From: Candidatus Sumerlaeia bacterium
GTDB lineage: Bacteria; Sumerlaeota; Sumerlaeia; SLMS01; JAHLLQ01
Assembly: GCA_028284075.1 (NCBI GenBank)
Contig: JANQSL010000192.1
Location: 1 to 47,013, forward strand
DNA: 47,013 nt
Reading direction: 5' to 3'
This document shows positions 1 to 39,029 of the stretch, piece by piece (position 1 is the stretch's first letter; each line of letters begins with the position of its first letter). The position numbers and the translations under genes are program-made. The notes under the pieces were generated by a model. The model was not told where the DNA came from. It did no database searches and worked only from the letters and a program-made list of their open reading frames with translations.

Positions 1-165
1 GCGCTTGCACTTGCGGATTTCAAGGGCATTCACGACCTTGGCATTTTGTGCATCATCGGTGTCGGACTGACTTTGATCTCAGCCGTTCTGGTTCTTCCGG
101 CGCTGATGCGACTGACCCAGGTGCGAGTTGTTCAGACAGGAGGTCACGGCGATGACCTCGGGTGA
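1..165 (+). CDS. 3' end (partial) of an MMPL/RND-superfamily membrane transporter (C-terminal TM helix ...LADFKGIHDLGILCIIGVGLTLISAVLVLPALMRL)
   Basis: Frame 1 is open from the window edge to TGA at 163-165; the hydrophobic C-terminal helix pattern is typical of MMPL/HpnN-like RND exporters. Family call is by pattern recall only. Confidence 0.4.
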   Translation, partial: ALALADFKGIHDLGILCIIGVGLTLISAVLVLPALMRLTQVRVVQTGGHGDDLG

Positions 166-168
166 GCT

Positions 169-1095
169 TCAGTTTTCCGGCGACTCGGCGACGGAGAGAG
201 CGAACGCAAGAATGAAGGCGTTGTGGCGCATGCGATCCAGGTAATGGTCCCGCGTCAATGCACCGGTTTCAAAGGTGTCCAGCGAGACAACTCGAAGTCC
301 CAGTTCCGCGGCTTCCTCGGCAAGAAGAGGGTTCCGGCTTCGACCGTTGGTTACAACAACTCTCAGTGCGACACGCTCCGATTCCCGGGCAAGAGCATCG
401 CGGAACTCCTGATTATCGTCTGTTCGCGCCGGATCATCTTCAACGAAGCGAGGTTCAAGACCTGTGGCGTCGAACCACGGTTTCATGTCGCGCCGGGTAC
501 AAATCAACATCCTGCCCTGCCAGGGGCTGAGGTCGCGCTTCAGCTTCTCAGCCAGGACATCGAGTTCTTCCAGCAGTTCTTCCTCGTTTGATTTGATCCG
601 ATCTGTAAATTCGGGATACTGTGAATGGAGTTGGCTGGAGAGCAGGCTCACTGCGGCGGCGGATTCAGCGGGATTCAGCCAGACGAGCTCTTCCAGTTCC
701 TCGTCAGATACTTTGATAACCGCTTTCCCGTTTTTCCCCTCAAAGCGTTCAAACGCCTCCACCGCTCTTTCGTCGCGCACACCATCGGACGCCACCAGAC
801 AGGAGGCCCCGGGTATGGGATTGTTTGCAGGGAGATTTTTAGCCTTCAGCGCGTCGTCGATTTCACGTGTCAGAAGCAGGCGCGGTTCATCGACTCCATC
901 GAGGAGAGAAGCTGTCCAGCTTTGGAGAGCTGCGTTTGTTGTGACAACAGAGGGTTGAGTCTCGACCAGGGGCACTCCCCGTTCCCGGGAACATCCACCG
1001 GCGAGGAGGGTGAGGAGGATTGACAGGCAAAGAAAAGCGGCCGGCTGCCAGGGAAGTCGTCGGAGAAGGCAGTGCCGGCCGGAAATCACAAACAA
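169..1095 (-). CDS. ZnuA/TroA-fold (cluster A-I) periplasmic solute-binding lipoprotein, with the canonical metal-coordinating His residues substituted
   Basis: Lipoprotein signal ...LLTLLAGGC|S; the mature protein aligns by eye with ZnuA blocks (VVTTNAALQSW ~ VVTTFSILGDW; VWLNP ~ HVWLDP; KPWFDATG ~ HDAFGYF). The ORF-track start at 1257 overlaps rpmG; the likely start is TTG 1095 or GTG 1089, just after the rpmG stop. Confidence 0.6.
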   Translation of the reverse strand: MFVISGRHCLLRRLPWQPAAFLCLSILLTLLAGGCSRERGVPLVETQPSVVTTNAALQSWTASLLDGVDEPRLLLTREIDDALKAKNLPANNPIPGASCLVASDGVRDERAVEAFERFEGKNGKAVIKVSDEELEELVWLNPAESAAAVSLLSSQLHSQYPEFTDRIKSNEEELLEELDVLAEKLKRDLSPWQGRMLICTRRDMKPWFDATGLEPRFVEDDPARTDDNQEFRDALARESERVALRVVVTNGRSRNPLLAEEAAELGLRVVSLDTFETGALTRDHYLDRMRHNAFILAFALSVAESPEN

Positions 1096-1108
1096 TGCTG
1101 GAGAGCGA

Positions 1109-1291
1109 TTACTTGATTTCGCGGTGGATCGTGTGGCGCCGGAGGAACTTGTTGTACTTCTTGAGTTCCAGACGCTGCGGAGAATTCTTTCGATTTTTAA
1201 CCGAGACATAACGGGAAACGCCCGGCACGTCGGATTCGCGGCTTTCGGTGCACTCAAGGATCACCTGCACGCGGTTGCCCTTCTTGGCCAT
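1109..1291 (-). CDS. rpmG: 50S ribosomal protein L33, single-Cys (C-, zinc-independent type)
   Basis: 60-aa [16 protein letters not shown]...[21 protein letters not shown] matches the L33 family; ATG at 1289-1291; only one Cys, so no CxxC...CxxC zinc ribbon. Confidence 0.9.
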
Positions 1292-1310
1292 TGGTCTTCT
1301 TCCTGCGCTG

Positions 1311-1325
1311 GACACGTACTGTGTC
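1311..1325. promoter_or_regulatory. Imperfect inverted repeat GACACGTACTGTGTC 15-30 nt upstream of the rpmG start; candidate operator
   Basis: Arms GACAC/GTGTC seen directly. Function is not demonstrated; it does not resemble the proteobacterial Zur-box consensus. Confidence 0.2.
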
Positions 1326-1562
1326 GGGAAATTCGCGGATGAGCCTCCGCGGGAGCGCCGGAGTAAAGTGATGGAACCCTGCCCGATCAAGGGAAATCTG
1401 GCTTCCGTTCCCGCACCACACCCGGCCGGGGAAGCCGACATTGACCGTTGAGAGTACACGTGTTGGATCGTGTTGAAGAACTTCGGAAGGGATGGCTGCC
1501 GAGAGGCGCTTTCGCCTTTGCTCCCGCGGCAAAATGAGAGTCCCGTGGTCTGGAATCGTCCG

Positions 1563-3623
1563 ATGCCACCAACTCGCCCCACTGTTTCCTCTCCCGGTTC
1601 GCGTGCCGGCCTCCTCGTTGGGGGGGTGGTCGGTCTGCTGTTTGTTGCGGCGCTCCTGGTGACGGATTCCGGCATCCGCATTGGTGTGGTTCAGCCGGAT
1701 GCTTTGATCTACTCGCGATATGCGCTACAGGCTGCTGAGGGGATGCCGTACAGCTTTAACCCGGGGGATCCCGCCACAACCGCTGCCACAAGTCACCTCT
1801 GGCTTTGGCTGATGACCATTCCGGCATTCATTGGTGGGGGTGTTTCCGCGATCGCCGCCTGGGGAACGCTTCTCGGGTTTGGAGCATGGCTTGTGACGAT
1901 CCGGCTGGCGGGACGCATCGCAGGTGTTATCAGTCCCGGGACTGAGGATCTTGCGGCCCTCTTTGTGGCGATGGCGGGACAGACGGCCATGATGGCGTTT
2001 TCCCAGGTGGATATTGCCATCTATATCCCGGCGGTTCTTGCGGCGATTCTGGCGGCTCTTGAGAAAAGGGACCGTCTCCTGACAGTCCTGCTTGGACTCC
2101 TGCCCTGGATTCGTCCCGAAGGAGTTCTCTTTGCCGTCCTGCTCGGTTTGGTGTGTCTTGCCAGGTGCCGATCCGGGGAGAATCATCGGGCCTTTCTTTT
2201 CGCCTCGGTGCTTGGGATTGGGTCCTTCGGGCTGCTGCTGCTGTTCAACCTGATACTGACGGGTTCACCGGGATTCAGTTCGATGGAATCCCGTCGTCTT
2301 CTGGCAGACCGTCCTCTCTGGGCAGTCGCGGGGACTGTGGCGTTGGGAATGAGTGAGACGGTTCAAAACGTGATTCTCGGGATTCCCTCCACCCGGCTCC
2401 ACACGGTGTTTCCGGTGGTGACGTTTGTGCTCGCGATGACCGGGCTTTGTTTTGTTGTCCGGGCGCGGAAGGATTCCGGTTCGGTTCTGCTGTGGGCCGG
2501 TTTGTGCGTTGTGGCAACGATTGCGATTGGTGCGGCAGGCGGTTATCATGATTCAGGCTGGTTTCGTCTCAGCAGTTGGATGACACCACTTCTTCTCGTT
2601 TTCGCTGTCGCGGGTCTCTGCCTTGTTGCGGAGCGCTGGGAGTTGCCTCGTTCCGGTCTCTTCATTGTTGTCGGAGTAATGCTGGGTTATCAGGCACTCG
2701 GTTTGGTGGCATACGGGTCATCCGTGCGAGATTCCGTTCGCGTTGTTGAAGGACGTCTTTCCTTTGTGAAGGGTCTGGCGGAGCGGATTGAAGAAGGCGA
2801 AAGGATCGCTTCGCCGGGCAATGCGGGCTATGTCGCGGTTCTGCCCGGGCGTGCGGTTGTTAATCCGGCGGGCTTTGCATCACCGCGATTTCACACGAAT
2901 GGTGAGCTGGCTGCGGCAATCGAGGTTTTGAAGCACGAACCGGAAGCACGTTTTGAATGGTGGCTTGTTGAGCCGGGAGATCTGGCTTCGGAGTATATTG
3001 CACCGCTGGCGGGGGCGGTTGTTTCCGATCAGTTTCCGGTGTTTTCTCTGGCGGCAACGATGCAACTCGCACGGGCCGACATGTCACTCGTCAATATCCC
3101 GAATACCCCGCTGGATTCACAGGTTCAAAAAGCTGTCGAGGGGCTGACAAGAATAGGCAGCCTGGATGTTGGATATCTGAAGGACGAGAGAGAGAAAGGC
3201 TACCGCATTGTCAGCCGGTATCCTGAGTCGCGTTCGGAAGCGTTTGTGGTGAAAGGCCGTCCTGGCGAAACGGAGTTGCTGGAGTCGGGCAGGCTGGTGA
3301 GCGGTTACGAGAAGTTGAACCTCAGGATCGACCCGAACAAGGACCTGGTGGTGGTGCTTCGGCTTGCGACAGAAGCTTCCGTGCGTGTGTTCGCAAATCA
3401 CTCAGCGGCGAGAACTTCCACTCCGTTTGCGTTTGAATTGCCAATGATCCTGCCGGTTCTCGTCAATGAGCGCCGTGTGGGAGAAATTCGCGTTGAAGGT
3501 GCCGTGAATCGCCCACTGTTCGAGGTGGTGCATTCGATTCCGGCCGATCAACTGAGCGAATCGGAAATTCAGCTGATGATTGGTGGCGATCATCTCAGCA
3601 CCGCGATGTGGTTTTTCCAGTAG
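1563..3623 (+). CDS. Large polytopic membrane protein (about 10 or more TM helices) with a roughly 300-aa C-terminal soluble domain; possible GT-C-like glycosyltransferase or unknown
   Basis: Long ORF with many hydrophobic segments followed by a hydrophilic C-terminal domain. The start is uncertain (the ORF opens at 1470; an ATG at 1563 precedes the first TM). No recognisable catalytic motif. Confidence 0.5.
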
Positions 3624-3629: not shown

Positions 3630-4478
3630 TTAATCAAGTCCCCGCGCGGCAAGCTCCTCTTCGTCGAGACCAAGGAAGTGTCCGATTTCATGGCGGAGTG
3701 TGATATCCAGTTCTTCCATGAGTTTTTTTTCATCGGATGCGGCCAGAGCGATGTTTTCCGAGAAGATGAGTATCCGGGTCACATCGGTTTCCACTCCAAA
3801 GGCACTCTGTTCCGGCAGTGGGACTCCGTCGAACAATCCCATCGCGAGAGGATCGATGGGTGGATTGGAACTGTGAATGATCTCATCCGGCATCTGATCT
3901 TCAAGAATGATCGCCACGTTGCTGAGTGATTCACGGACGTCGGGAGGCAGTTCGTTGAAGATGTTGTTGAGTATTTTCTCGATTGCTTCGGGTTCGAGAA
4001 ACTTCGGTTTGAGCCAGCGGGCGGGCTCGCGTTCGTTGGCGCGTGCAAAGAAGATATCCGCAAGCTCGTGTTTGCGATCACGAAGGGCCAGCAGACCCAG
4101 ATAATACCATGCTTCGGCGATTTCCGGGTCTTCCACCGTGACCAGTTCGAAGCACTGTGCGGCGGAGACGAATCGCCCGAGATGGAAAAGAGAAACTCCC
4201 ATGGCAACGGCGGAATCAAGCCGTTCCGGGTCGGATTCGGATGCCTGGCGGTAGTAGCGCAGGGCTGATTCCAGATCACCATCCTCCCAGCAGGCATGGC
4301 CGGCGATCATCAGAAAATCCGATGGAGCGTACTTGCAGTCCTCATCGAAGTTGTAATCCAGAAGTTCCAGTGCCGTCTGGCATTTTTTGATGGCCTCTTC
4401 CGCCAGTCCCTCGCTCGAAGCCGCTTCGGCGCTGTTGTGAAGTTGTTCCAGCCGTTCGTTCAGTTCGTTTGAATCCAT
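3630..4478 (-). CDS. TPR-repeat protein fused to a C-terminal minimal zincin-like metallopeptidase domain (HEIGH motif)
   Basis: The N-terminal half has TPR-like AxxAxxYYxxA periodicity (ALRYYRQASESDP, AWYYLGLLAL). The C-terminus has LRHEIGHFLGLDEEE, the HExxH zincin signature of small 'metallopeptidase family' proteins. Start chosen at ATG 4476-4478 (MDSNELNERL). Confidence 0.6.
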   Translation of the reverse strand: MDSNELNERLEQLHNSAEAASSEGLAEEAIKKCQTALELLDYNFDEDCKYAPSDFLMIAGHACWEDGDLESALRYYRQASESDPERLDSAVAMGVSLFHLGRFVSAAQCFELVTVEDPEIAEAWYYLGLLALRDRKHELADIFFARANEREPARWLKPKFLEPEAIEKILNNIFNELPPDVRESLSNVAIILEDQMPDEIIHSSNPPIDPLAMGLFDGVPLPEQSAFGVETDVTRILIFSENIALAASDEKKLMEELDITLRHEIGHFLGLDEEELAARGLD

Positions 4479-4486
4479 ATGGACTG

Positions 4487-5692
4487 CTATTCCATCGTGC
4501 CGGAGTGATTGAGATCGACGCGGCAATGCTTGTTCTGGCAGGCTTTGGGAATGTGATTGTTCAGAAAATCACGGCGCATTCCCACCGCGCCTTCGCCGTT
4601 CCAGACTTCATCGAAACTCAGTTTGTTAAGATTGCCAAAGGATATTCCCGTCCAACAGCAGGGTCTGCAGTCGCCGTCCGTATCAATCAGCGCAAAGTAC
4701 CAGGGGTAATGGCACTTCTCCATAAGTGTTTGTCCCTTTGTCGAGACTGTGGCCATTGGATCGTCCGTCCGGCCATCGGTTGCCTGATCGAATTGCCGGC
4801 GTTCGGGAAGTGAGAGTCCTTTGGTCATGAGGTTTCGCAGGGCGATGTTGATATGCACTCTCACCGGTTTGCCTTCGGCCCGCTTCATTGTTTCGATCAC
4901 CATCTCACGTGCGAGCTCGATGTGGTTGCCGAGGAATTCATCCTCCAGTTCGGGATTCTCCATCTCCATCAACTGAACGCTATACACTTCGAAACCGTGG
5001 CGGACGGCAAAGTCCACCAGGCTCGGCATCTGGCGCACGTTTCTCTCCATGAAGGTCGATGCAAGGGTCATGGTCGGGCGTGGTTTGCCGAGTTTGCGTT
5101 TCCACTTGTTGATGGACTGCAGGGCGTTTTCGACTTTATGGAGTTCTCCCCGAACGCGCATTGAGGCGTAGACGTCGGGATCGTCTGAATCGACGCTGAC
5201 GAAGATATGGTTCATGCCGCCGTCGACAAGCATCTCGGCCCGTTCGTCGGTGATGAGGTTGGCGTTGGAAGTCATTGCCAGGTTGTGACTGCCAAGCTGA
5301 CCGTGACGCTCAAGAACACGGCCGAACTTGCTGTAAAGAAGCGGCTCGCCCAGGGGCGTGAGTGTGATGGTTTCCGGATAAGGCATGAGCTCCATCACGG
5401 TGTCGAAAACGCGGTCGCTGATTTCCAGTTCGCGGGGCGGTTTTGCTTTGAGTTCTTTCTGAGTGCTTTCAAGAGTCAGGCGGCAGAAGTTGCACTTGAG
5501 ATTGCAGGTCCAGTTTGTGCCGATCTGCATCAGGCGGGGTCTGGAGTTCAGTTCAACGCGTTTGTGCCAGTACTCGCGCCAGTTCAGCCGCGAGTTCGCA
5601 AGCTTGACGTCTTCGCCGGTTGCGCGACGGAGATCAGATTCAAGTCTGGCGCGTTTCACGGCGCGGACAGCTTCGCGAAGAACTGATGTCAT
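4487..5692 (-). CDS. Radical SAM enzyme with a Cys-rich C-terminal auxiliary-cluster (SPASM/twitch-like) domain
   Basis: CNLKCNFC (Cx3Cx2C) radical-SAM cluster motif after LMQIGTNWT; C-terminal cysteines CHYPWYFALIDTDGDCRPCCW...CQNKHC. Start at ATG 5690-5692 is preceded by GGAAGGAAAA; the ORF-track start at 5809 would abut the HU stop. Confidence 0.75.
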   Translation of the reverse strand: MTSVLREAVRAVKRARLESDLRRATGEDVKLANSRLNWREYWHKRVELNSRPRLMQIGTNWTCNLKCNFCRLTLESTQKELKAKPPRELEISDRVFDTVMELMPYPETITLTPLGEPLLYSKFGRVLERHGQLGSHNLAMTSNANLITDERAEMLVDGGMNHIFVSVDSDDPDVYASMRVRGELHKVENALQSINKWKRKLGKPRPTMTLASTFMERNVRQMPSLVDFAVRHGFEVYSVQLMEMENPELEDEFLGNHIELAREMVIETMKRAEGKPVRVHINIALRNLMTKGLSLPERRQFDQATDGRTDDPMATVSTKGQTLMEKCHYPWYFALIDTDGDCRPCCWTGISFGNLNKLSFDEVWNGEGAVGMRRDFLNNHIPKACQNKHCRVDLNHSGTME

Positions 5693-5825: not shown

Positions 5826-6122
5826 TTAGAGAACTTCGTCCTTGGCCTGCTTGGCGAGGCGGAATTTGAGAGCCCTGCGGGCAGGTATCTTGATGGCTTC
5901 GCCGGTCTGCGGGTTGCGGCCCATGCGAGCCTTGCGCTTCACGACCACCAGCTTGCCAAGGCCGGGAAGGGTGATGCCCTTCTCTTTCTTGGCTTCCTTG
6001 TAGGCAATTGCCAGAAGTTCGTCCCAAACCAGAATAATATCCTTCTTGGTCAGACCGGTCTGGTCGGCCAGGTGGCTCATCAACTGGGATTTCGTCAGGG
6101 GCTTGTGCACTCTCTTGGCCAT
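5826..6122 (-). CDS. hup: HU/IHF-family histone-like DNA-binding protein
   Basis: GLGKLVVVKRKARMGRNPQTGEAIKIPAR carries the RNPQTGE arm signature of HU/IHF. ATG 6120-6122 is preceded by GAGGTG; the upstream in-frame extension to 6308 has no homology. Confidence 0.85.
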   Translation of the reverse strand: MAKRVHKPLTKSQLMSHLADQTGLTKKDIILVWDELLAIAYKEAKKEKGITLPGLGKLVVVKRKARMGRNPQTGEAIKIPARRALKFRLAKQAKDEVL

Positions 6123-6288
6123 CGGGAACACCTCGTCTGCGGGATGATTTCGCCGGTTTTTACCCGGCATATGGCTCGTGATTGAACCTTTCAAACGGTG
6201 AATGCCTGCTTTTTCCCCAGTAGAGTCAACGAAAAGCAGCAAGTTGTGAATAAAAAACCGTGATTTTTCGCACTTTTCATACTTCGAA

Positions 6289-6318
6289 GGGCCTAAAAGC
6301 CGCGTCACAGGCCCTTTT
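6289..6318 (-). terminator. GC-rich hairpin (GGGCCT-N14-AGGCCC) abutting the histidine-kinase stop codon; possible intrinsic or bidirectional terminator
   Basis: Perfect 6-bp stem seen directly. On the + strand it is followed by TTTT; on the - strand by TTCGAAGTATGAAAAG, a weak U-tract. Confidence 0.3.
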
Positions 6319-12003: not shown

Positions 12004-13332
12004 TTATTCCTTGTCTTCAGGTGCAGGTGGTGTAACGCGCATGCGTCGGATGCGATGACCGTCCATTGCGGCAACCCGGAGAATCCAGCCGTTTTCCTCG
12101 AGAGTCTCGCCCCGGCGCGGAACGCGGCCAAGGCGGGCATAAACATAGCCGGCAATGGTTTCAGCGTTGAATTTGGTGATATCGAGGCCGATCTCCTCCC
12201 GCAGATCATCAATGTCAGCGGAGGGATCGACGATCCAGCCGCCCTTGATTTCAAAATACATCCGCTGAGGACGCTCGAGTTCGTCTTCAATATCGCCAAC
12301 GATTTCCTCAAGAATGTCTTCGCGGGAAAGCCAGCCGGAGGTGCCGCCGAATTCGTCGAACACGATGGCCACCTGTTGCTTGGCATGTATCATCTGTTGC
12401 AGAACCGAATCCACGCGTGCTGTTTCCGGAATGTAAAGAGGCTTTGTCATCAGCTCCCGGAGATCGCCACGGCGGTCGCCTTCCTCCTCCAGAACATCGT
12501 AGATATTGATATAGCCGGAGAGGTTGGTGATCTGGTCTTCATACACAGGGACACGAGTGTAGCCGGTGCGGCGCGCAAGATCCAGGAAGCGACGTGCCGT
12601 GTAGTCCGACAAGCGGATGGCTGTCACATGGTTAATGGGTTTCATGATTTCACGCACAAGCGTGTGTCGCAGGCGCTCGATGGAGCGCACCATATCGCGT
12701 TCGGATCGAACACGCTCTGTCTGTCCTGGTGATGTCTCGATACCGACGCTTTCCTCCGACAGTCCGAGGCGAATTTCATTGTCGCGTTCAAACAGCTGTG
12801 CTTTGGGCCGGCCTGCGCCGATGTGGTTAAAGAGCCAGTCGAATCCAGTGTGGATCTGTTCCCAGACGAGATGTCCGGCCTGGTAGGGGAGAGGCGGTTG
12901 GGCTTCGCGGTCGACAAGCCAGTTGGGGAAAGAGACTTTCTCGTTCAGTTGTGGGAACGGGAATTGTCGTGCAAAAACACCGTGCAACAGGAGTGCTGTG
13001 AGAAACGTTGTGGCGGTTAGCGCAAAAAAAAGCAGAACGATGGCTGTGACGGATCCGTTCAAACTGCCGGTGTTGATTGTTTGCCAGAGGAGTGCTGCAG
13101 CAGAGGGATAGAGGAGGAACAGGGCGGAGATTCGAGCAAGTTTTGCCGTGCTCAAAACCATTCTGGTGCGGTCGAGGCCCGTGGAAATACGAACGGGATC
13201 GGTGGATTCATCCTCCGGAGCCACTCGCAGCATGGCAGTGGCAAGACGCAGTTGGCGCGCTTCAACCAGTTCCCCCCACATGCGAAGGATGAGTGCCAGA
13301 ATCAGGAAGCCGGCGGATGTCGCGAGAATCAT
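12004..13332 (-). CDS. CNNM/HlyC/CorC-family transporter (DUF21 TM domain + CBS pair + CorC_HlyC C-domain), paralog 1
   Basis: CBS-pair region (REIMKPINHVTAIRL ... VAIVFDEFGGTSGWLSREDILEEIVGDIEDE) and C-terminal CorC/HlyC transporter-associated domain (ETIAGYVYARLGRVPRRGE). Confidence 0.8.
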   Translation of the reverse strand: MILATSAGFLILALILRMWGELVEARQLRLATAMLRVAPEDESTDPVRISTGLDRTRMVLSTAKLARISALFLLYPSAAALLWQTINTGSLNGSVTAIVLLFFALTATTFLTALLLHGVFARQFPFPQLNEKVSFPNWLVDREAQPPLPYQAGHLVWEQIHTGFDWLFNHIGAGRPKAQLFERDNEIRLGLSEESVGIETSPGQTERVRSERDMVRSIERLRHTLVREIMKPINHVTAIRLSDYTARRFLDLARRTGYTRVPVYEDQITNLSGYINIYDVLEEEGDRRGDLRELMTKPLYIPETARVDSVLQQMIHAKQQVAIVFDEFGGTSGWLSREDILEEIVGDIEDELERPQRMYFEIKGGWIVDPSADIDDLREEIGLDITKFNAETIAGYVYARLGRVPRRGETLEENGWILRVAAMDGHRIRRMRVTPPAPEDKE

Positions 13333-14738
13333 CAGGAGATTTCCCTCTGTTCCACAGGGATGGCTTCCGCGACTGCATCCGCTCCGGTTTGTTCATTACG
13401 ACGAAAAGCAACCGCAAGTATACGGGTGTTGACCACTTCGCGAACGATAAAGTGACCGCCGTCGATATCGATCTCCTCGCTTTCCTTCGGAAGGCGGCCG
13501 AATTCGTGCATCAGCAGTCCACCGAGTGTTCTCGCGACTTTTTCATCGAGATCAAGATCGAGTTGTTCGTTGATTTCCCACAGTTCCACACGACCGGAAA
13601 TGACGGCTTCATCCGGGCCCTTTCGCTCGATCCAGAATTCCTCTTCCTCTTCTTCATCAGCGATGTGCTCGCCAATAAGTGCCTCGAAGAGGTCGTGAAA
13701 GGTGACAATGCCGGCCGTGCCGCCATACTCATCGACAACAACGGCGAGATAGCTGCGCTCACGCCGCAACAATATCAGCAGGTCAGGAAGATTCGTGGCG
13801 GTGCTGACGATTGCCGGCTTGCGCAGCAAATCCATTGGGTTTCCGGGAAGGTTAAGGAGAACTTCCTTTGCCAGGAGGAACCCGGCGATACTGTCGAGGT
13901 TCTGGTCGTAAACAAGCAGACGACTGTAGCTGGTTTCATTCAGCCGTTCAAAGAGTTCCTGGCGGCCGATGTTGCGAGGGACACCTTCGAGATCCGTGCG
14001 CGGTGTCATGATGTCGCGCGCCGTACGCTCAAAGAATTCACGCACGGAATCGATCATCTCAACGGCTTCTTCCTCCATGACCGTGTCCACGGCCTGAACA
14101 TGTGGAAGAAGCCGCAGCTCGCGGTCGTGCACGAGTCCGGCGATCAGGCGGCTTTCGTTGTCGGCATGCTTCAGCGAAGAGCCAAGAGTCAGGGTTACGA
14201 GGGGCCGGACCGGTATCGTGAGAATTCTCGCAGGTGAATCGAAGATGCGAACCACGAATTCGACGTGGTTCAGTGTTATCTGACGGACAAAAATATCGAA
14301 TACCGCGAATTGAAGAACCGCCGCGAGCAGCCCTCCCGCGATACAGGCCGCGACCCACATCCCTGGCAGCATGGAAATTCCCAGAAGGGCGGAAAACAGT
14401 CCGGCTGCGAGGTTGAGAAGAAGAGTTCCGGCCCAGCAGGAGCGTTCAAGAACAGCGGCATCCGCCGGGAGTACGCTCGCAGGGACAGGAGTTTCGTCGT
14501 CCTCACCCGAGCCCTCGAGTTCTGTCAGGGCTCCGAGCGCGGTTTGCACGGAATACAGAATTCCTGCGGCAAGGGAGCAGGCCAGCACGATCATGAACAG
14601 GATTCCGGCACGAGGCAGTACGGTTGCCGAGTCTGCATCGGGCGATGTCTCGACGGCGCTCAACGCCACGGCGGCCGGTACCATCAAGGCAGTGACGAGA
14701 AGGGGTAATCGGCTGGTACTTGGAGGGTCGGAGTCCAA
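13332..14738 (-). CDS. CNNM/HlyC/CorC-family transporter (DUF21 + CBS pair + CorC_HlyC), paralog 2; its stop overlaps the start of paralog 1
   Basis: RDIMTPRTDLEGV...LAVVVDEYGGTAGIVTFHDLFEALIGEHIADEEEE followed by a CorC_HlyC-like C-terminus; 1-nt overlap with the downstream paralog. Confidence 0.8.
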   Translation of the reverse strand: MDSDPPSTSRLPLLVTALMVPAAVALSAVETSPDADSATVLPRAGILFMIVLACSLAAGILYSVQTALGALTELEGSGEDDETPVPASVLPADAAVLERSCWAGTLLLNLAAGLFSALLGISMLPGMWVAACIAGGLLAAVLQFAVFDIFVRQITLNHVEFVVRIFDSPARILTIPVRPLVTLTLGSSLKHADNESRLIAGLVHDRELRLLPHVQAVDTVMEEEAVEMIDSVREFFERTARDIMTPRTDLEGVPRNIGRQELFERLNETSYSRLLVYDQNLDSIAGFLLAKEVLLNLPGNPMDLLRKPAIVSTATNLPDLLILLRRERSYLAVVVDEYGGTAGIVTFHDLFEALIGEHIADEEEEEEFWIERKGPDEAVISGRVELWEINEQLDLDLDEKVARTLGGLLMHEFGRLPKESEEIDIDGGHFIVREVVNTRILAVAFRRNEQTGADAVAEAIPVEQREIS

Positions 14739-15023
14739 ATCAGGTCAGGTCAGGCGTTCACGGTGAGTATCAGTGTTTCCTTGAGACATGATTCGCTAGG
14801 GTACGAGCGGCGCCTTCGTCAAGGGAGGAAACCTGTATTTTGGGTGAATTGAGGGCTCAAAGAGCCAGGCTCCCCGGGCCATTGCAACAGGCAGATCGAT
14901 GTGCGCAGCGGGTCCGGCAACGGCTACACCCTGGATTTCAATCCAACAGCATGGATTACGGCATTCCGAGAGCTTTCCGCTTTCTTCGAGCGGGCAGTCC
15001 TGCAGGAGCGACCGGTTGGCTCT

Positions 15024-16226
15024 TCAGTCTTTCCGAGGCGGATCCTCTGTGTTGGCGCCGAGCGCTCCGGCACGCCGCGCCCAGCGTTCTCGTGCAAGTT
15101 CCTGCATGTCTTTCGTTTTGTCCGCCTCGTCGACGATCTCCGTACCAACGAGTGTTTCAAGGGCGTCTTCCAGGGTGACAACCCCCTCCGTGCCTCCGAA
15201 CTCATCGAACACGAGAGCAATGTGCTCCTGGCTATCCAGAAGCTTCTCGAGAAAGCCGGAAATAGACAGTTTCGACGGGACTGTCATCAGGTCCCGGCGA
15301 AAATCGGAAACGGGGCGATGACCGTGGTTTTCCGCCTTTGCGAGAAGCAGATCGCTCTTGAGCGCGAAGCCAATGACATCATCGAGGTCTTTTCCGTAAA
15401 GAGGAAGACGTGAAAACGAATCCTGTGCATGCTCATCGATTGCCTCCGAGACGGATGTGTCCCGTTGGATGGCGGAGATAACGGTTCGGGGCGTCATGAT
15501 GTCGCGGACGGTGAGTGATTCGAGGAGGAACAGGTTGGAGATGATCCGCGACTCCTCTTCTTTCAGATAACCGGACTGCCCGCCCATGCGTGCCATTGCG
15601 ACGAATTCCTCCCGATCAAAGGAATGACCGGTTCGGCCGCGGGCGATCAGTTTGGTGAGTGCCTCGGAAACGACAATGAGTGGGTACATTATGACGATCA
15701 GGCTTCGAATAAAGAGAGCTGCAGGCCATGAAAGAGCGCGCCAATAAAGGGCACCAAGGGTTTTAGGGACAATTTCAGAGAGGAACAGAATCAGCAGCGT
15801 CATCACGGCGGAGAAGACTCCGAACCAGGCGCTGCCAAAAACCACCGTTGCTTTGGCTCCCGATCCGATGGCGCCGACGGTATGGGCGATCGTGTTGAGT
15901 GTCAGGATTGCGGCGAGAGACCGGTCGACGTTGTCCTGCTTGAGTTTTTGGAGCAGCTCCGCTCGTCGCGGGTGGGTCTCTTCAAGTCTGGCGACAAAGG
16001 ATGGCGTGATACTGAGAAGCACCGCTTCGGCGATGGAGCAGAGGAAGGAGAAGACGAGCGCCAGAAACACATATGCCAAAAGCATCACGACATCCGTACT
16101 GTCATGGCTCGCGGTTGTTTCAGCCGATTGCGGAACTCCGGCGGCATAAAGGATCCCGGTCAGGCCGGGAAAGCAGAGAGCGACTGCCAGGATCTTTGCC
16201 CATGCAGGGCGGGTTACGATCTTCAA
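15024..16226 (-). CDS. CNNM-family (DUF21 + CBS pair) membrane protein, paralog 3, lacking the CorC_HlyC domain; TTG start
   Basis: VRDIMTPRTVISAIQRD...IALVFDEFGGTEGVVTLEDALETLVGTEIVDEAD. The start codon at 16224-16226 reads TTG (the ORF track translated it as M). The N-terminal 25 aa look like a signal peptide. Confidence 0.75.
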   Translation of the reverse strand: MKIVTRPAWAKILAVALCFPGLTGILYAAGVPQSAETTASHDSTDVVMLLAYVFLALVFSFLCSIAEAVLLSITPSFVARLEETHPRRAELLQKLKQDNVDRSLAAILTLNTIAHTVGAIGSGAKATVVFGSAWFGVFSAVMTLLILFLSEIVPKTLGALYWRALSWPAALFIRSLIVIMYPLIVVSEALTKLIARGRTGHSFDREEFVAMARMGGQSGYLKEEESRIISNLFLLESLTVRDIMTPRTVISAIQRDTSVSEAIDEHAQDSFSRLPLYGKDLDDVIGFALKSDLLLAKAENHGHRPVSDFRRDLMTVPSKLSISGFLEKLLDSQEHIALVFDEFGGTEGVVTLEDALETLVGTEIVDEADKTKDMQELARERWARRAGALGANTEDPPRKD

Positions 16227-16548: not shown

Positions 16549-17331
16549 ATGAAAACTGCCCGGGCATGGCGGCCACTGTTACTCGCGGTGATGGCACTTG
16601 GATTTTCCACAGATATGGCTGTCGCCAATGAGACTGCGGCCGAGATAAGGCAGGCTCGTTCCTCCCTGGAGGAGTGGGTCGAGACCAGGCGGGTCATTTC
16701 GAAGGAAAAGCGGGATCTCGCTCTCTCAAAGGAAATGCTTGGAGAGCGAATCACGCTGGTTCAGCGGGAGATCGAGTCGCTTCGAGAGAAAATCTCCGAA
16801 GCGGAAAAAAGTGTCGCTGAAGCGGACAGGAAGCGCGAAACTCTGATAGAGGAAAACGACCAGCTGAAAAAAGCCTCTGCGGCACTGGCTCACTTGCTCG
16901 CCTCCCTTGAACAGCGTACGGCGGATCTTCTTGGACGCCTGCCGGAACCCATTCGCGAGCGCGTTCGTCCTCTGAGCCAGCGGATTCCCAAAGATTCCGA
17001 AGAAACGAAGCTTTCAATGTCGGAGCGTTTTCAGAACGTCGTTGGCATTCTCAACGAGATAAACAAGTTCAATCGTGAGATCACTGTGACCAGCGAAGTG
17101 CGGAAGCTTCCTGACGGGACTTCGGCGGAAGTGACGGCACTCTATCTTGGCATTGGTCAGGCGTTCTACACAGGTTCGAGCGGCACCATCGCGGGTGTCG
17201 GCAGAGCGACGGAGACTGATTGGACATGGGAGTCTGCCAACGAAGCCGCGGAGGAGATCGCAGGTCTCGTTGCCATCCTGCAAAACGAACAGGTGGCTTC
17301 CTTTGTTCACGTACCTGTCAACATCAAGTGA
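16549..17331 (+). CDS. Periplasmic coiled-coil protein, DUF3450/TtpB-like; first gene of the TonB2-type cluster
   Basis: Signal peptide then long heptad-rich coiled coil (EIESLREKISEAEKSVAEAD...). Its position immediately upstream of a large MotA/ExbB-family gene matches Vibrio ttpB-ttpC-exbB-exbD-tonB2-ttpD (recalled, not searched). Confidence 0.6.
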   Translation: MKTARAWRPLLLAVMALGFSTDMAVANETAAEIRQARSSLEEWVETRRVISKEKRDLALSKEMLGERITLVQREIESLREKISEAEKSVAEADRKRETLIEENDQLKKASAALAHLLASLEQRTADLLGRLPEPIRERVRPLSQRIPKDSEETKLSMSERFQNVVGILNEINKFNREITVTSEVRKLPDGTSAEVTALYLGIGQAFYTGSSGTIAGVGRATETDWTWESANEAAEEIAGLVAILQNEQVASFVHVPVNIK

Positions 17332-17353
17332 GGGTGACTTCACCACTGTGACT

Positions 17354-19102
17354 ATGAAACGACTTCTTCTTTTTGTGTCCTGCCTGATGATTGGCGTGTT
17401 CGCTCACGGCCAGGAAGGACCGGATTCCGGCAGAGAAGCCTTCGGCAATGCCGTTGGCTCCGTTCAGCAGAAGCTTGAGGCAAGCATTGCTGAACTCAAT
17501 CAGCTTCGTGAGCGCACAGCGGAGGAAACCATTCCTCTCAGCCGGGAACTTCGTGAGCTTGAGGACCAGCTGACAGAGGTTCGCTCCGAGTTTCAACAAA
17601 CGACCCGGATTCTCGACAGCCGTACACTGGATCTCAGCAATCTTCGCACAGAGATTCAGCGCCGTGAGCAGGAGGCGACGTATCTGTCGAACCTGCTTGG
17701 CGAATACATTCGTAATTTTGAGTCACGTCTGCACATAGCGGAACTTCAGCTCTATCGTGAGACACTGGAAGAGGCGAGGCTTGCTCCTGAGAACAGTGCG
17801 CTCTCCGAAGAGGAGGTTTTTCATGTCCAGGCAAACATGCTTTCCGCTTCGTTGGATCGTCTCGACGAATCCCTGGGCGGTGACCGCTTCAACGGGGCGG
17901 CCGTCGACACGGCGGGGATTGTAAAGAATGGCACTTTTGTGCTTCTCGGTCCTGCCGCGATTTTCAGCTCCGACGACGGCGAAATCGTGGGAACCGCCGA
18001 GCAGCGCCTCGGGTCTCTTGAGGCTGCGGCAATCCCTTTCAATGATGCGGAAAACATGGAAGCCGCGAGGAATCTCATTGCCGGTTCCACGGGGTTCTTT
18101 CCTTTGGACCCGACTCTTGGCAACGCTCACAAGATTGAGGAGACAGAAGAGACCTTTATCGAACACGTTCGCAAGGGCGGACCGGTCATGATTCCGATCT
18201 TCTGTCTTGCGGGTGCGGCGTTGCTTGTCGCGTTGTTCAAATGGTTCTGCATGATTCTGGTCAGGAATCCCTCTCAGGGGCGAATTAACAGGCTGCTGCT
18301 GGCTGTTGAGAAGCATGACCGGGAGGTTCTTGCAAAAGAGGAGAAAGCTCTTCGCAAGCCTCGTGTTCATCCCGTATTCGACTGGTTGTATGGAGGGCTT
18401 TTCGGAGCGGCATTCGGAGCCGCCGCCTGGAGCATCCACCGGGTCGATCTCGGAAGTTTTGTATCACCCATCAATCTTGGCACGGACGTTACCGTTTATG
18501 TGATCGCCTTCGCGGCGGGAGGTGCCGCGCTTCAGTTCCTGCTGATGCGTATCGTCGGTTCATCGCCCGTCGGAAGAATGCTGGCTGTTGGAATCGACCA
18601 TGTCACGGAGCCGCCGGAATTAATCGAGGAAGTCATGTATGAACAGATGCTCTCGACGCGGCTGAGTCTGGAACGATTCCTTCCCTTTGTCGCCATCAGC
18701 GCCGCCGCCGCTCCGTTGCTTGGCCTTTTGGGAACAGTGACCGGTATCATTAACACGTTCAAACTGATTACGGTTTTTGGCTCGGGCGATGTCAAGACAC
18801 TCTCCGGCGGTATTTCCGAGGCACTTGTTACGACCGAGTTCGGTCTTATTGTTGCCATTCCGTCCCTGCTGATTCACGCGTTTCTATCGCGGAAGGCGCG
18901 CGGTGTTGTGAATCAGATGGAAAAGGCGGCTGTTGCTTTTGTGAATCAGGTCAGCAAGACTCCCTTTGCCGACAGTGACGGCAACGGCAGGACGATTCCT
19001 CCGCGGACCTCTCCCGAACCGGACGTGAAGAGAGCGGCCCCGGAATCACCCGACACGCAGGAGATTCCTGAAACCGAACCTCAGCTCGTCGGCAGCCAAT
19101 AA
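17354..19102 (+). CDS. TtpC-like large MotA/TolQ/ExbB-family protein (signal peptide, long periplasmic coiled-coil domain, C-terminal 3-TM proton-channel domain)
   Basis: C-terminal LLGLLGTVTGIINTF...SGGISEALVTTEFGLIVAIPSLL is the ExbB/TolQ signature. ATG 17354 chosen; the ORF-track start at 17147 overlaps the upstream gene. Confidence 0.7.
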   Translation: MKRLLLFVSCLMIGVFAHGQEGPDSGREAFGNAVGSVQQKLEASIAELNQLRERTAEETIPLSRELRELEDQLTEVRSEFQQTTRILDSRTLDLSNLRTEIQRREQEATYLSNLLGEYIRNFESRLHIAELQLYRETLEEARLAPENSALSEEEVFHVQANMLSASLDRLDESLGGDRFNGAAVDTAGIVKNGTFVLLGPAAIFSSDDGEIVGTAEQRLGSLEAAAIPFNDAENMEAARNLIAGSTGFFPLDPTLGNAHKIEETEETFIEHVRKGGPVMIPIFCLAGAALLVALFKWFCMILVRNPSQGRINRLLLAVEKHDREVLAKEEKALRKPRVHPVFDWLYGGLFGAAFGAAAWSIHRVDLGSFVSPINLGTDVTVYVIAFAAGGAALQFLLMRIVGSSPVGRMLAVGIDHVTEPPELIEEVMYEQMLSTRLSLERFLPFVAISAAAAPLLGLLGTVTGIINTFKLITVFGSGDVKTLSGGISEALVTTEFGLIVAIPSLLIHAFLSRKARGVVNQMEKAAVAFVNQVSKTPFADSDGNGRTIPPRTSPEPDVKRAAPESPDTQEIPETEPQLVGSQ

Positions 19103-19104
19103 CA

Positions 19105-19800
19105 ATGATGGAAACTGCGGAAACAGAGGCGGCAGCGAGCCGGTTCGAGGCCCTCTGGCAGGAAGCCACGGTGATCTGGTTTTCAGGCGGTTGGGCCATG
19201 ATCGCCATCGCTGCCATTGCGTTTCTGATGTTCGGCCTTGGCATTCATGTCTGGTTCAGACTGACGGCACGGCGTTTCGGTTCAGTGGGTGAGAAAACGT
19301 GGCGGCGCTGGATCGATGACACGCCCGAGGAACGTCGCGGACCGATTGGTGAGATGCTCGATTTTGTGACCGGCGGCCGGACAATCAAGGACACGGTAAC
19401 GTATTTTGAGGAGCTTCGCACGTCAGAGATCGCACCCTTCGAGCGGGATCTCCGAGTGATGCGTATCTGCGTTACGGCTGCTCCGTTGCTCGGGCTTTTG
19501 GGAACGGTAACGGGCATGCTTGCCACGTTCGCCGCTTTGTCCAGCGGTTCCGGAGGCGACAAGACCATGGAGATGGTGGCGGGTGGAATTTCCGAGGCGC
19601 TTGTGACGACGGAAACAGGTTTGGTCATCGCACTGCCGGGCCTTTTTTTTCAGTACCAACTGGTGCGGAAACTGGAGTCCTACAAGGCGTTTCTGGCACA
19701 CCTCGAGACGGTTTGCACGCAGCGACTCTATCGACGGCTGCGCGGAACCCTGACGAGCGATGCTCGGTCTGCACTTCCCGATTCAGCCACAAGACCCTGA
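19105..19800 (+). CDS. exbB: ExbB/TolQ proton-channel protein
   Basis: PLLGLLGTVTGMLATF...AGGISEALVTTETGLVIALPG with 3 TM helices. Confidence 0.85.
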   Translation: MMETAETEAAASRFEALWQEATVIWFSGGWAMIAIAAIAFLMFGLGIHVWFRLTARRFGSVGEKTWRRWIDDTPEERRGPIGEMLDFVTGGRTIKDTVTYFEELRTSEIAPFERDLRVMRICVTAAPLLGLLGTVTGMLATFAALSSGSGGDKTMEMVAGGISEALVTTETGLVIALPGLFFQYQLVRKLESYKAFLAHLETVCTQRLYRRLRGTLTSDARSALPDSATRP

Positions 19801-19807
19801 GGTCAGC

Positions 19808-20221
19808 ATGAGCCGATTCAGCCGTATGTCAGCGGAAGACAACAGCGAAACGGGAGTCGATATCTCTCCGCTGCTGGATTGCGTCTTCATTCTTCTGATT
19901 TTCTTCATCGTGACGACGACGTTTGTGGAGGAGACCGGCGTTGAAGTCGACAAACCTCAGGCTGCATCGGCGGTGAAGCTGGAGAAAACAAGTATTCTGA
20001 TCGCGCTTACCGAAAAGGGTGAAGTCGTCTATGGGGGCCGCGAAATCGGTGTGAGCGGGATTCGCCCGCTGGTAAAGCGTATGCTTCAGGCTGAAGATGT
20101 CCCGGTAATCGTTCAGGCGGACGCCGGCGCTGAGACAGGTCTCCTGGTTCGCATTATCGATGAAGTGAAACTGGCGGGAGCGAACAAGGTCAGCGTGGCC
20201 ACCAGCCAATCAAAGAGTTGA
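19808..20221 (+). CDS. exbD: ExbD/TolR biopolymer transport protein
   Basis: DISPLLDCVFILLIFFIVTTTF single N-terminal TM with the conserved Asp; periplasmic domain; ATG 19808 is preceded by GAGG. Confidence 0.85.
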   Translation: MSRFSRMSAEDNSETGVDISPLLDCVFILLIFFIVTTTFVEETGVEVDKPQAASAVKLEKTSILIALTEKGEVVYGGREIGVSGIRPLVKRMLQAEDVPVIVQADAGAETGLLVRIIDEVKLAGANKVSVATSQSKS

Positions 20222-20233
20222 TCGAACACCGTT

Positions 20234-20911
20234 ATGCGGCATCGAAAGCGGAGTCCGTTCCGGATCCTCGCAGACATTTTGCACCCTGTGATTGTCGTAC
20301 TCGGCGCGGCGGCATTCACTCTGCTGTGCTTTCTTGTGCTCCCTCTGATTCAGACTTTGAACAAGCCGCCGACAGCGGACTTGATGCTCCAGAACATGGA
20401 TGTGGCTCAGCTGGAACCTCCTCCCCCTCCACCCGAGGAGGAAGAGCCTGAAGAGGAGGAGCAGGAGGAGGAACCTCCACCGGAGCTGATGGAAGAAGCA
20501 CCACCTCTCGATTTGTCTCAGCTCGAACTTGCACTGAATCCCGGTGTGAGCGGCGGTTTTCTCCAGGGCGATTTCACCGTGAACCTGGTGAGCATGGCTT
20601 CCGGCGGGAAGGATGTGGAAGAGTTGTTTTCTCTGGCGGATCTCGACCAGAAGCCCCGGGTGATTTATCAACCCGGTCCGCGTGTCACTCCGGAAGTTCG
20701 CAAGTACGCGCCAGGTACCGTCTATCTGATCTTCATTGTTAACAGGGACGGACGCGTTGAGAATCCCATCGTTCAGAAATCGTCGAACCCGGTGTTCGAG
20801 AAGCCTGCTCTCGATACCATCAGAAAATGGAAGTTCGATCCTGGCAAGAGGAACGGACAGGCTGTCCGATTCCGTATGCGCGTACCGTTTACTTTTCCGG
20901 AAGGTCTGTAA
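20234..20911 (+). CDS. tonB: Energy transducer TonB (TM anchor, Pro/Glu-rich spacer, C-terminal TonB domain)
   Basis: PPPPPPEEEEPEEEEQEEEPPPE spacer; C-terminal YPxxA-like region ...KYAPGTVYLIFIVNRDGRVENPIVQKSSNPVFEKPALDTIRKWKFDPG. Confidence 0.85.
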   Translation: MRHRKRSPFRILADILHPVIVVLGAAAFTLLCFLVLPLIQTLNKPPTADLMLQNMDVAQLEPPPPPPEEEEPEEEEQEEEPPPELMEEAPPLDLSQLELALNPGVSGGFLQGDFTVNLVSMASGGKDVEELFSLADLDQKPRVIYQPGPRVTPEVRKYAPGTVYLIFIVNRDGRVENPIVQKSSNPVFEKPALDTIRKWKFDPGKRNGQAVRFRMRVPFTFPEGL

Positions 20912-20934
20912 TTCCGCAAGGAGCTGAATCACTC

Positions 20935-22365
20935 ATGCCATTTTCAAACGATTACTTTACCTCCACTCTTCGCCGGACAATACCGCTTAAAGGAAGTCTT
21001 CTCTGTGGGGTGGTTTGTTGTGCTCTTTTTGTTACCGGTTTTGCCGGGGCACAGCCTTCGGGGGTTAGTGAGGAGGCTCTTGATGTGTGGCGCGATCCGG
21101 CGTTTCAGAAGCGCTTCGCGGAGAGTTACATGGCGGAGACGGACATCGAGCCACGGGTCGATGCGGAAGAGCGCGAAGTGATGCAGGAAATTCTCGATCT
21201 CATCTCCACGGAACGCATGGACGAGGCGGCGGATCTTCTTCGGAATCAACTCGAGCGTGAGGAAACCGCCAGTGCGGTATTTGATTTCACACTCGCCAAC
21301 ATTTATTTTCAGCAGGATCAGCTGGACGAAGCGGTTCCGTACTACGAATCCGCCGTTGAGAAATTTCCGAAGTTTCGCCGAGCTCTGAAGAACTTAAGCC
21401 TGATTCATGTTCGAAAGAACCGTTTTGAAGAGGCGCTTCCCGTTCTGACGAAGGTTGTGGAGCTCGGCGGCGCAGACTCCATAACGTATGGCTTGCTTGG
21501 TTACTCCTACTCATCGGTGGAGAATTTCCTCTCCGCTGAATCAGCCTATCGCATGGCCATCCTTCTCGATCCGGAAACTCTGGACTGGAAGATGGGACTG
21601 GCTCGCGCCTTTTTCAAACAGGAGCGATTTGCCGAGGCCATCGCGCTTTGCCGGCAGTTGGTTGAGCGGTTTCCCGAACGCACAGACCTGTGGCTGCTGC
21701 AGGCCAATGCCTACATCGGGCTCGGGCAGCCAATGGAAGCGGCGGAGATCTACGAGATAGTCGATCACATGGGTGGTTCGACAGCGGATAGTCTGAATAT
21801 GCTTGGTGATATCTATATCAACGAAGAACTGTACGAGCTTGCCAGCGGGTCCTATATTCGTGCCATGGAGAGCGACGAGGAGGCGAACGCCAATCGCGCG
21901 ATTCGCTCTGCCAGAATTCTTGCCGCGCGCGGGGCTTTCGATGAAACAAAACAGTTGGTTTCAAAAATTGAGCAGATTCACGGAAACGGTCTTGAGACGG
22001 ACGAGCGAAAAGATCTCCTGAAACTCCGGGGGCGGCTTGCCGTTGCCGAAGGGGCAGGTGACGAAGAGGTAAGTATTCTCGAGGAGATCATCGAAATCGA
22101 TCCACTGGATGGAGAAGCTCTGATCCTTCTTGGCCAACACTCCCGCCGAAATGAGGATGTGGAACAGGCTGCATTCTATTTCGAACGGGCCGCCGCCATC
22201 GAAGGTTTTGAAGCGGATGCGAGCGTTCGCCATGCACAGCTTCTCGTTGGCGACGGACGGTACGAAGAGGCACTGCCTCTTCTGCGCCGCGCGCAGCAGA
22301 TTAAATTTCGTGAAAACGTTCAGGAGTATCTTGAACAAGTGGAACGGGTTGCCCGGACGCGATAG
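20935..22365 (+). CDS. Secreted TPR-repeat protein (TtpD-like) ending the TonB cluster
   Basis: Signal peptide then multiple TPR units (IYFQQDQLDEAVPYYESAVEKFP...); ATG 20935 is preceded by AGGAG. Confidence 0.7.
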   Translation: MPFSNDYFTSTLRRTIPLKGSLLCGVVCCALFVTGFAGAQPSGVSEEALDVWRDPAFQKRFAESYMAETDIEPRVDAEEREVMQEILDLISTERMDEAADLLRNQLEREETASAVFDFTLANIYFQQDQLDEAVPYYESAVEKFPKFRRALKNLSLIHVRKNRFEEALPVLTKVVELGGADSITYGLLGYSYSSVENFLSAESAYRMAILLDPETLDWKMGLARAFFKQERFAEAIALCRQLVERFPERTDLWLLQANAYIGLGQPMEAAEIYEIVDHMGGSTADSLNMLGDIYINEELYELASGSYIRAMESDEEANANRAIRSARILAARGAFDETKQLVSKIEQIHGNGLETDERKDLLKLRGRLAVAEGAGDEEVSILEEIIEIDPLDGEALILLGQHSRRNEDVEQAAFYFERAAAIEGFEADASVRHAQLLVGDGRYEEALPLLRRAQQIKFRENVQEYLEQVERVARTR

Positions 22366-22407
22366 ACGGGCGGGGCGGTATGTCGCTTTTCCGTCATTGA
22401 AATGACA

Positions 22408-22419
22408 GCTGACGTCAGC
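22408..22419. promoter_or_regulatory. Perfect 12-bp palindrome GCTGACGTCAGC (CRE/TGACGTCA-like) about 30 nt upstream of the Sel1-repeat gene; adjacent smaller inverted repeat GTCATTGAAATGAC at 22393-22406
   Basis: Seen directly in the 84-nt intergenic region. Confidence 0.3.
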
Positions 22420-22448
22420 GTGATCTGATCTGGAACAGCACGAGTGCG

Positions 22449-29854: not shown

Positions 29855-29862
29855 GCTCAGAG

Positions 29863-34533: not shown

Positions 34534-34591
34534 GGTGGTGCAAATATCGACAGAGCCCGTTTCGGTGCAATGTCAGAGCGAGCCCCTCTTC

Positions 34592-39028: not shown

Positions 39029-39029
39029 C

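Follow-up and report, generated by a model that had tools for sequence, protein, structure and literature searches.

Zur-controlled C- paralogs of ribosomal proteins, i.e. forms that lack the zinc ribbon of their C+ counterparts, are well documented beside zinc-uptake genes in phyla other than the one considered here. Examples of such Zur-regulated paralogs are rpmGC in the Zur regulon of B. subtilis and the alternative ribosomal-protein operon of mycobacteria. The zinc-binding protein ZnuA is a member of cluster A-I of the substrate-binding proteins (SBPs), which also includes AdcA/AdcAII, TroA, PsaA, MntC, AztC, and YcdH, and the metal ligands together with a tryptophan residue were conserved in all classical cluster A-I sequences compared (PMC7731109). 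Orphan SBPs of this cluster that use a distant transporter are known, for example AdcAII (PMC8966984, PMC3842936). Here we describe a gene pair of Candidatus Sumerlaeia bacterium, phylum Sumerlaeota, which consists of rpmG, the gene for ribosomal protein bL33, and a downstream gene for a ZnuA-like lipoprotein. The pair is located on contig JANQSL010000192.1 of assembly GCA_028284075.1, and the 47,013 nucleotides (nt) of this contig, all of which were analysed, are called the window in the following.

The window lipoprotein has in common with the cluster A-I SBPs homology over the full length, the two-lobe fold with its long helix, the invariant tryptophan, the aspartate that acts as fourth ligand, and a lipoprotein/periplasmic export signal, but it differs from them by A82, L137, and R201 at the ligand positions, by the lack of a His-rich loop, by the lack of adjoining genes for an ABC-3 permease or an ATPase of the ATP-binding cassette (ABC) type, and by an rpmG gene that is always found upstream. 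As in the case of the Zur-regulated C- paralogs, an L33 without zinc ribbon is encoded beside a gene of zinc-uptake ancestry; this L33, however, is the standard type of FCB-like (Fibrobacteres-Chlorobi-Bacteroidetes-like) lineages and not a diverged spare copy, and the 47-kb window revealed neither a Zur box nor a zur gene, a C+ copy, or a functional importer for zinc. The same single-Cys type of bL33, with 68-77% identity, is encoded in Bacteroidota within a cluster of rpmB, rpmG, a small open reading frame (ORF), and an ftsY-like gene, whereas in Sumerlaeota rpmB is not adjacent and a ZnuA-like gene follows rpmG instead. Like the gene for the orphan zinc SBP AdcAII, the lipoprotein gene lies away from permease and ATPase genes. 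AdcAII, however, keeps its metal ligands and binds zinc, which in the canonical manner does not appear possible for the window protein.

The existence of the pair, the homology of the lipoprotein to ZnuA, and the loss of its three histidine ligands are far beyond chance, and the rpmG-linked context of this lipoprotein family is a new element. With a probability that we put at roughly 0.6, the pair is a fixed two-gene operon composed of a housekeeping rpmG gene and the gene of an orphan, SBP-like lipoprotein whose metal site is dead. An earlier sequence-only reading of the window had taken the two genes for a zinc-starvation module. The unit comprises and adjoins the following features.

1291..1109, minus strand: rpmG, coding for bL33 of 60 amino acids with one Cys (C14), as seen from its translation and from scores of hidden Markov models (HMMs)
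1096..1108, minus strand: 13-nt spacer between the rpmG stop codon (TAA) and a TTG start codon, read from the sequence
169..1095, minus strand: lipoprotein gene with TTG start at 1095, coding for 308 amino acids with the predicted cluster A-I (ZnuA/PsaA) fold and without the His triad
991..1095, minus strand: predicted signal peptide with hydrophobic N-terminal segment and lipobox-like LAGG-C35 (Cys codon 993..991), read from the sequence
1..165, plus strand: 3' end of a convergent MMPL/RND-type transporter gene, assigned from its translation; downstream limit of the two-gene unit
1470-3623, plus strand: gene for a multi-pass membrane protein of 717 amino acids without Pfam match, diverging from rpmG

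The single cysteine of the L33 and the start of the lipoprotein ORF 13 nt past the rpmG stop codon, both of which had been pointed out before, agree with the translations. The product deposited at NCBI for the lipoprotein gene (P0164) has 306 amino acids, a length from which a GTG start at 1089 and thus a spacer of 19 nt can be deduced; a look-up of P0164 brought up no entries. No Shine-Dalgarno-like sequence is present in the 13-nt spacer. Since the convergent MMPL-type gene ends at 165, the unit consists of two genes; the related loci L001 and L003 have full-length MMPL genes in this convergent place. A long ORF that spans 169..1257 and overlaps rpmG out of frame was rejected as a real gene, because the family alignment places the signal peptide right after the rpmG stop codon.

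By sequence and by predicted fold, the lipoprotein is a homolog of ZnuA. It matches the Pfam family PF01297 (ZnuA) with 47.4 bits at a gathering cut-off of 29, covering positions 75-258 of the 263 profile positions, and the alignment of the profile of its family with a canonical ZnuA profile by hhalign extends over 271 columns and both lobes (probability 100, E-value 2.6e-40). The AlphaFold2 (AF2) model, for which an alignment of 26 sequences was used (pLDDT 87, pTM 0.81), shows two four-stranded lobes and a long connecting helix (helices 142-159 and 161-192); with an alignment of two sequences the N lobe was unusable (pLDDT 61). In a Foldseek comparison with the PDB, the top 50 matches were all cluster A-I proteins (ZnuA, YcdH, AdcAII, PsaA, MtsA, FpvC, MntC, and AztC) with TM scores of 0.65-0.78 at 13-18% identity, and the list was headed by 1pq4 (ZnuA), 2o1e, and 2ps0 (ZnuA). 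The assignment of a ZnuA fold by the sequence-only reading was thus confirmed by Pfam, hhalign, AF2, and Foldseek, and no better fit to a cluster A family other than ZnuA emerged from Pfam, hhalign, Foldseek, or the joint alignment of family and canonical sequences. ZrgA has an unrelated fold.

The positions of the metal ligands were derived from two independent alignments that agree with each other, the hhalign alignment mentioned above and a MAFFT L-INS-i alignment of 25 family representatives and 18 canonical sequences.

Codon 850..852, minus strand: His1 (PH of GPHDY) replaced by A82 in 'DDAL'; His in 18/18 canonical sequences, variable in the family (A5, S5, P3)
L137-V138-W139 at 679..687, minus strand: His2 (HxWLDP) replaced by L137 in 'LVWLNP'; His in 18/18 canonical sequences, in the family F10, Y5, H3
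Codon 493..495, minus strand: His3 (HDAF) replaced by R201 in 'TRRD'; His in 17/18 canonical sequences, in the family D12, R4, S3
Codon 277..279, minus strand: fourth ligand Asp (LDxLE) retained as D273; Asp in 17/18 canonical sequences, in the family D21, N4

The ligand quartet therefore reads A-L-R-D in the window protein, while the combination H-H-H-D is found in 16 of the 18 canonical sequences and in a single one of the 25 family representatives (P0013); the other 24 have lost the His triad. The tryptophan of the HxWLDP motif (W139) is present without exception in the 25 family and the 18 canonical sequences. Judged by these aligned columns, the window lipoprotein is unable to bind zinc in the canonical way, which bears out the earlier claim that a zinc-binding protein has ceased to be a canonical binder. 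The three motifs on which that claim had been based fared differently: 'LVWLNP' is in register with His2, whereas 'DEP' (residues 69-71) and 'PWFDAT' (residues 206-211) lie about 12 and about 5 residues off the ligand positions. The loss of the coordinating histidines stands nevertheless, as the correct positions A82, L137, and R201 do not carry His either.

The window protein belongs to a monophyletic family with its own conserved residues (W60, L64, L65, P71, P206, and N292). A word-indexed homolog search yielded only one identical protein and one relative with 60% identity, whereas an exhaustive profile search retrieved about 25 full-length relatives with 20-39% identity, after which ordinary ZnuA proteins followed that matched the C-terminal half only. 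A profile search of genome contigs with a narrow alignment returned only the Sumerlaeota metagenome-assembled genome that had already been found. Named members come from Candidatus Sumerlaeota/Sumerlaeia (five), an organism listed as 'bacterium' (one), and Candidatus Poribacteria (one), and they are annotated in NCBI and IMG as zinc or metal ABC substrate-binding protein or as 'ZnuA'. In the literature that was searched, no account of a His-less, rpmG-linked ZnuA clade or of the zinc biology of Sumerlaeota was found.

In all ten members that were looked up (the window protein, P0002, P0003, P0004, P0005, P0006, P0010, P0013, P0035, and P0040), rpmG is located directly upstream on the same strand, with gaps between -1 and 83 nt; on the contig fragment with P0005, only the final codons of rpmG are left. 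In two loci, the stop codon of rpmG overlaps with the start of the lipoprotein gene. The other neighbours of the pair differ in almost every locus, and neither an ABC-3 permease gene nor an ABC ATPase gene was found beside the pair in the ten loci. As a control, the nearest His-bearing canonical relative (P0021) was inspected; its gene lies in a znuA-ABC_tran-ABC-3 operon without rpmG.

These neighbourhoods bear on the idea that the lipoprotein is a working SBP for a distant ABC importer and that its specificity has shifted, either towards a hard cation bound through carboxylates or towards a ligand other than a metal in a remodelled cleft. Purifying selection has preserved the complete SBP fold, the export signal, and many of the family motifs, aspartate is frequent at the ligand positions 3 and 4 (12 and 21 of the 25 representatives, respectively), and AdcAII provides a precedent for an orphan SBP of this kind. 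On the other hand, transporter genes are missing beside the gene in all ten loci while the canonical relative P0021 has both, the ligand positions 1 (A/S/P) and 3 (D/R/S) vary in a manner that argues against one conserved binding chemistry, and the window protein has Arg instead of Asp at position 3. Furthermore, the acidic residue E250 on the lobe surface of the canonical proteins, which presumably serves in docking, is not conserved in the family. We regard an importer function as unlikely, though by no means negligible.

The second component of the pair, the L33, reaches full-length scores far above the cut-offs of PF00471 (67.3 bits, cut-off 25), TIGR01023 (70.1 bits, cut-off 23.95), and NF001860 (79.1 bits, cut-off 50). 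It is of the 'VILECTE...SRY' type and lacks both CxxC zinc knuckles. Its nearest solved relatives, with 70-75% identity, are the bL33 proteins in purified ribosomes of Flavobacterium johnsoniae (7JIL) and Porphyromonas gingivalis (9I5T), with which it has in common the insertion that replaces the first zinc knuckle. We also fetched 80 metagenome loci with an L33 that is 68-77% identical to that of the window. In those inspected, an L28-like ORF (rpmB) was located upstream of the L33 gene and a small conserved ORF and an FtsY-like gene downstream, these flanking genes being identified by eye from their translations. A ZnuA-like ORF within 3.5 kb of the L33 gene was absent from all 80 loci, which marks the pairing as a peculiarity of the Sumerlaeota-like lineage.

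Since the same type of L33 is present in purified ribosomes of Bacteroidota, a single Cys is no marker of a Zur-regulated paralog, and by its sequence the single-Cys L33 is the normal housekeeping ribosomal protein of whole phyla and not a distinct spare copy. The sequence-only reading, which had deduced a Zur-regulated C- paralog from the one cysteine, finds no support in this respect, as the protein matches the bL33 of the 7JIL and 9I5T ribosomes and the L33 proteins of the rpmB-rpmG clusters. The same holds for the zinc-starvation module, in which a Zur-repressed C- rpmG gene would replace a C+ L33 and the lipoprotein would have become an altered component of zinc uptake, for example a sensor or chaperone. 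That the L33 lacks the zinc ribbon and that the neighbour of rpmG is derived from ZnuA fit such a module, as do the precedents in other phyla. On the other hand, the His triad is gone in 24 of the 25 members, and the L33 is far more conserved than its neighbour among the Sumerlaeota loci (78-85% versus 40-60% identity). The 47-kb window contains no second rpmG, no gene of the Fur/Zur family, and no znuB or znuC (ABC-3 permease or ATPase), none of znuBC, zur, and a second rpmG adjoins the pair in nine other loci, and in the approximately 118 kb of related loci there is one rpmG per locus and neither zur nor znuBC. The rpmG gene of the window is thus probably the ordinary, naturally zinc-free L33 gene of the lineage, and a zinc-starvation switch is quite improbable.

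A zinc-responsive operator did not become apparent upstream of rpmG either. No AT-rich operator was found there in the window, no palindrome was detected in the window or in six of the eight other loci scanned, and an inverted repeat of at least 6 bp is missing from the 260 nt 5' of rpmG in the window, the Zur motif of the phylum being not known. The region contains two elements that are candidates for expression signals.

1362..1399, minus strand: promoter-like element with T-tract/-35 AGATTTCCCTTGATC (1399..1385), 17-nt spacer, and -10-like TTTACT (1367..1362), found by sequence comparison
1296..1304, minus strand: Shine-Dalgarno-like AGGAAGAAG just 5' of the rpmG ATG, read from the sequence, with AGGAG-like sequences at the same place in other loci

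The promoter-like element can be read as TTGATC-17 nt-TTTACT at 1390..1362. A motif TTT-N2-4-CTTG occurs once in each of nine rpmG upstream regions, at -91 to -125, compared to a mean of about 0.1 of 9 in shuffled sequences; the pattern was defined post hoc, after the sequences had been seen. A scan with a strict sigma-70 consensus did not reveal a promoter in the region, and terminators were found at chance level only. Several minor features of the region were also noted. In locus L004, a perfect 8-1-8 palindrome, TTGGCTTGTCAAGCCAA, which is not present in the other loci, overlaps the -35-like motif about 121 nt 5' of the rpmG ATG. The rpmG leader of the window contains a 5-5-5 inverted repeat, GACAC-AGTAC-GTGTC, at 1311-1325 (minus strand), which recurs with a different spacer in the 60%-identical relative L001. 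A conserved leader RNA was rejected, as the consensus fold of the nine rpmG leaders gave no pairs; the leaders are too divergent.

The one family representative with the complete His-His-His-Asp set, P0013, is encoded at L012:3360-4322, directly downstream of an rpmG gene at L012:3091-3276 and without adjoining ABC-3 or ATPase genes. It carries in addition a short His-rich loop, GHDHDAH. Its membership in the family is indicated by a score of 272 bits against a family HMM from which it had been left out, compared to 150 bits against the canonical profile, by its position nested inside the family in a neighbour-joining tree, and by N- and C-terminal motifs shared with a subclade in which all other members lack the histidines as a result of loss. 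No close relatives of P0013 were found in a database of 5.8 billion proteins, so that the retained state is represented by one sequence. Because P0013 is nested among members without histidines, the rpmG-linked ancestor probably bound metal, and the simplest reading is that the metal site was probably lost more than once; because P0013 keeps His-His-His-Asp, it is plausible that the ancestry of the pair was zinc-related. In L012, a perfect AT-rich 7-2-7 palindrome, TGAGAATTCATTCTCA, abuts a -35-like motif about 111 nt 5' of the rpmG ATG (around L012:2980-2995). It resembles operators of the Fur family except for its 2-nt spacer and is present solely in the locus whose protein keeps the histidines, which makes it a lead and not evidence. 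The ligand set and loop of P0013 and this palindrome are the points of the locus that can be cited for a zinc-starvation module.

The lipoprotein is, by the pattern of its substitutions, under purifying selection and not decaying. In comparison with the 60%-identical ortholog, the ratio of nonsynonymous to synonymous substitutions (dN/dS) is about 0.14 for the lipoprotein gene, with dS saturated, and 0.10 for rpmG. All members, down to about 20% identity, have an uninterrupted ORF for the lipoprotein. A strict lipobox pattern is found in 14 of the 25 representatives; by eye, a hydrophobic segment leading up to [GAS]C can be recognized in about 19 of the 25, whereas AxA-type signal peptides or a hydrophobic anchor are found in the others. 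The possibility that the gene is a functionless, decaying relic which has been kept only through its place in the rpmG transcription unit would agree with the fact that the defining ligands are gone and the transporter partner has been lost, but in view of the intact ORFs, the maintained export signals, and the conservation of W60, L64, L65, P71, P206, and N292 it is highly improbable. The reading as a pseudogene was ruled out by these conserved family residues in combination with the dN/dS ratio.

The two-gene operon of housekeeping rpmG and SBP-like lipoprotein gene, which we prefer, may have arisen and may work as follows. The ancestor of the lipoprotein would have been a genuine SBP for metal, with its gene linked to rpmG even then, and its metal site would then have decayed, probably repeatedly, because the function under selection, as we propose, no longer needs a transition metal. 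The lipoprotein gene would be transcribed from the rpmG promoter and, because the 13-nt gap lacks a Shine-Dalgarno sequence and stop and start overlap in two loci, might be translated by coupling or re-initiation after rpmG. Production of the lipoprotein would consequently be constitutive and would keep pace with ribosome synthesis instead of responding to zinc. Once exported, it might act as a periplasmic orphan 'pseudo-SBP' at the outer face of the inner membrane, where it could bind a non-metal partner or ligand or have a structural or docking role.

Several points weigh against this explanation. The pseudo-SBP role is its least certain step, and co-transcription and translational coupling are features that we infer from spacing alone. 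In about half of the family, the aspartates found at the ligand positions 3 and 4 might yet coordinate a hard cation. The negative results cover 47 kb of the genome, the remainder of which may contain zur, a znuBC operon, or an rpmG of the C+ form. The missing palindrome is weak evidence, since the Zur operator of the phylum is not known, and the synteny sample consists of ten members, partly on short metagenome contigs. A related and more tentative proposal, which we consider rather doubtful, is that an ancestral, zinc-binding ZnuA was captured by the rpmG unit early in Sumerlaeota and, with repeated loss of the metal site, exapted into a metal-independent periplasmic lipoprotein that is coupled translationally to a ribosomal protein, the metal-binding and possibly metal-regulated state surviving in at least one lineage (P0013/L012). 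If it is true, a growth-rate-coupled envelope factor would have been built on a transporter scaffold, and the transition could be studied directly by means of P0013/L012.

The reading as housekeeping rpmG with a metal-site-dead lipoprotein has, if correct, consequences for annotation. The zinc-uptake capacity of Sumerlaeota as deduced from these genes would probably be wrong, because 24 of the 25 representatives are without zinc ligands and no transporter genes adjoin. A C- L33 gene beside a znuA homolog mimics a hallmark of the Zur regulon, and caution would be advisable, as in the present case a housekeeping gene with a degenerate passenger is more likely. The family would also represent a monophyletic, His-less clade within cluster A-I, whose metal ligands are regarded as universally conserved, and, with its strict link to rpmG and one ligand-bearing survivor, a tractable case of a binding protein that was repurposed after the loss of its ligand site.

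Further genes of the window were noted in passing. A protein with TPR and Zincin_1 (PF06262) domains is encoded at 3630-4526 (minus strand), and the gene for the 717-amino-acid membrane protein sits between it and rpmG; in L003, its counterpart is located directly upstream of rpmG on the same strand. The whole window gave no Rfam match and no tRNA. An HU/IHF-type DNA-binding protein (PF00216) encoded at 5826-6308 (minus strand) has about 70 extra N-terminal residues, which represent either an over-long ORF call or a real extension. Three tandem CNNM/CorC-type genes at 12004-16226 (minus strand), whose products have CBS and CorC_HlyC domains, code for putative Mg/Co efflux or hemolysin-like transporters. 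The region 16549-32292 (plus strand) forms an outer-membrane transport block with DUF3450, two MotA/ExbB, ExbD, TonB_C, TPR, and Sel1-repeat proteins, a TonB-dependent receptor with a carboxypeptidase-regulatory domain (26879-29854), and an Omp85/POTRA protein (29863-32292), and therefore points to a diderm envelope. Genes typical of the Planctomycete/Verrucomicrobia-type bacterial microcompartment sugar pathway are found at 35543-40397, namely those for a class II aldolase (35543-36634), an aldehyde dehydrogenase (37223-38683), and the phosphate propanoyltransferase PTAC (39720-40397), all on the minus strand; a lactate/malate dehydrogenase gene and galT/galK at 32300-35515 (minus strand) adjoin them. 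The gene at 43115-45148 (plus strand) codes for a protein of 677 amino acids whose C-terminal domain is of the Peptidase_S74 (endosialidase chaperone) type, which also occurs in phage tail fibres and certain surface proteins.

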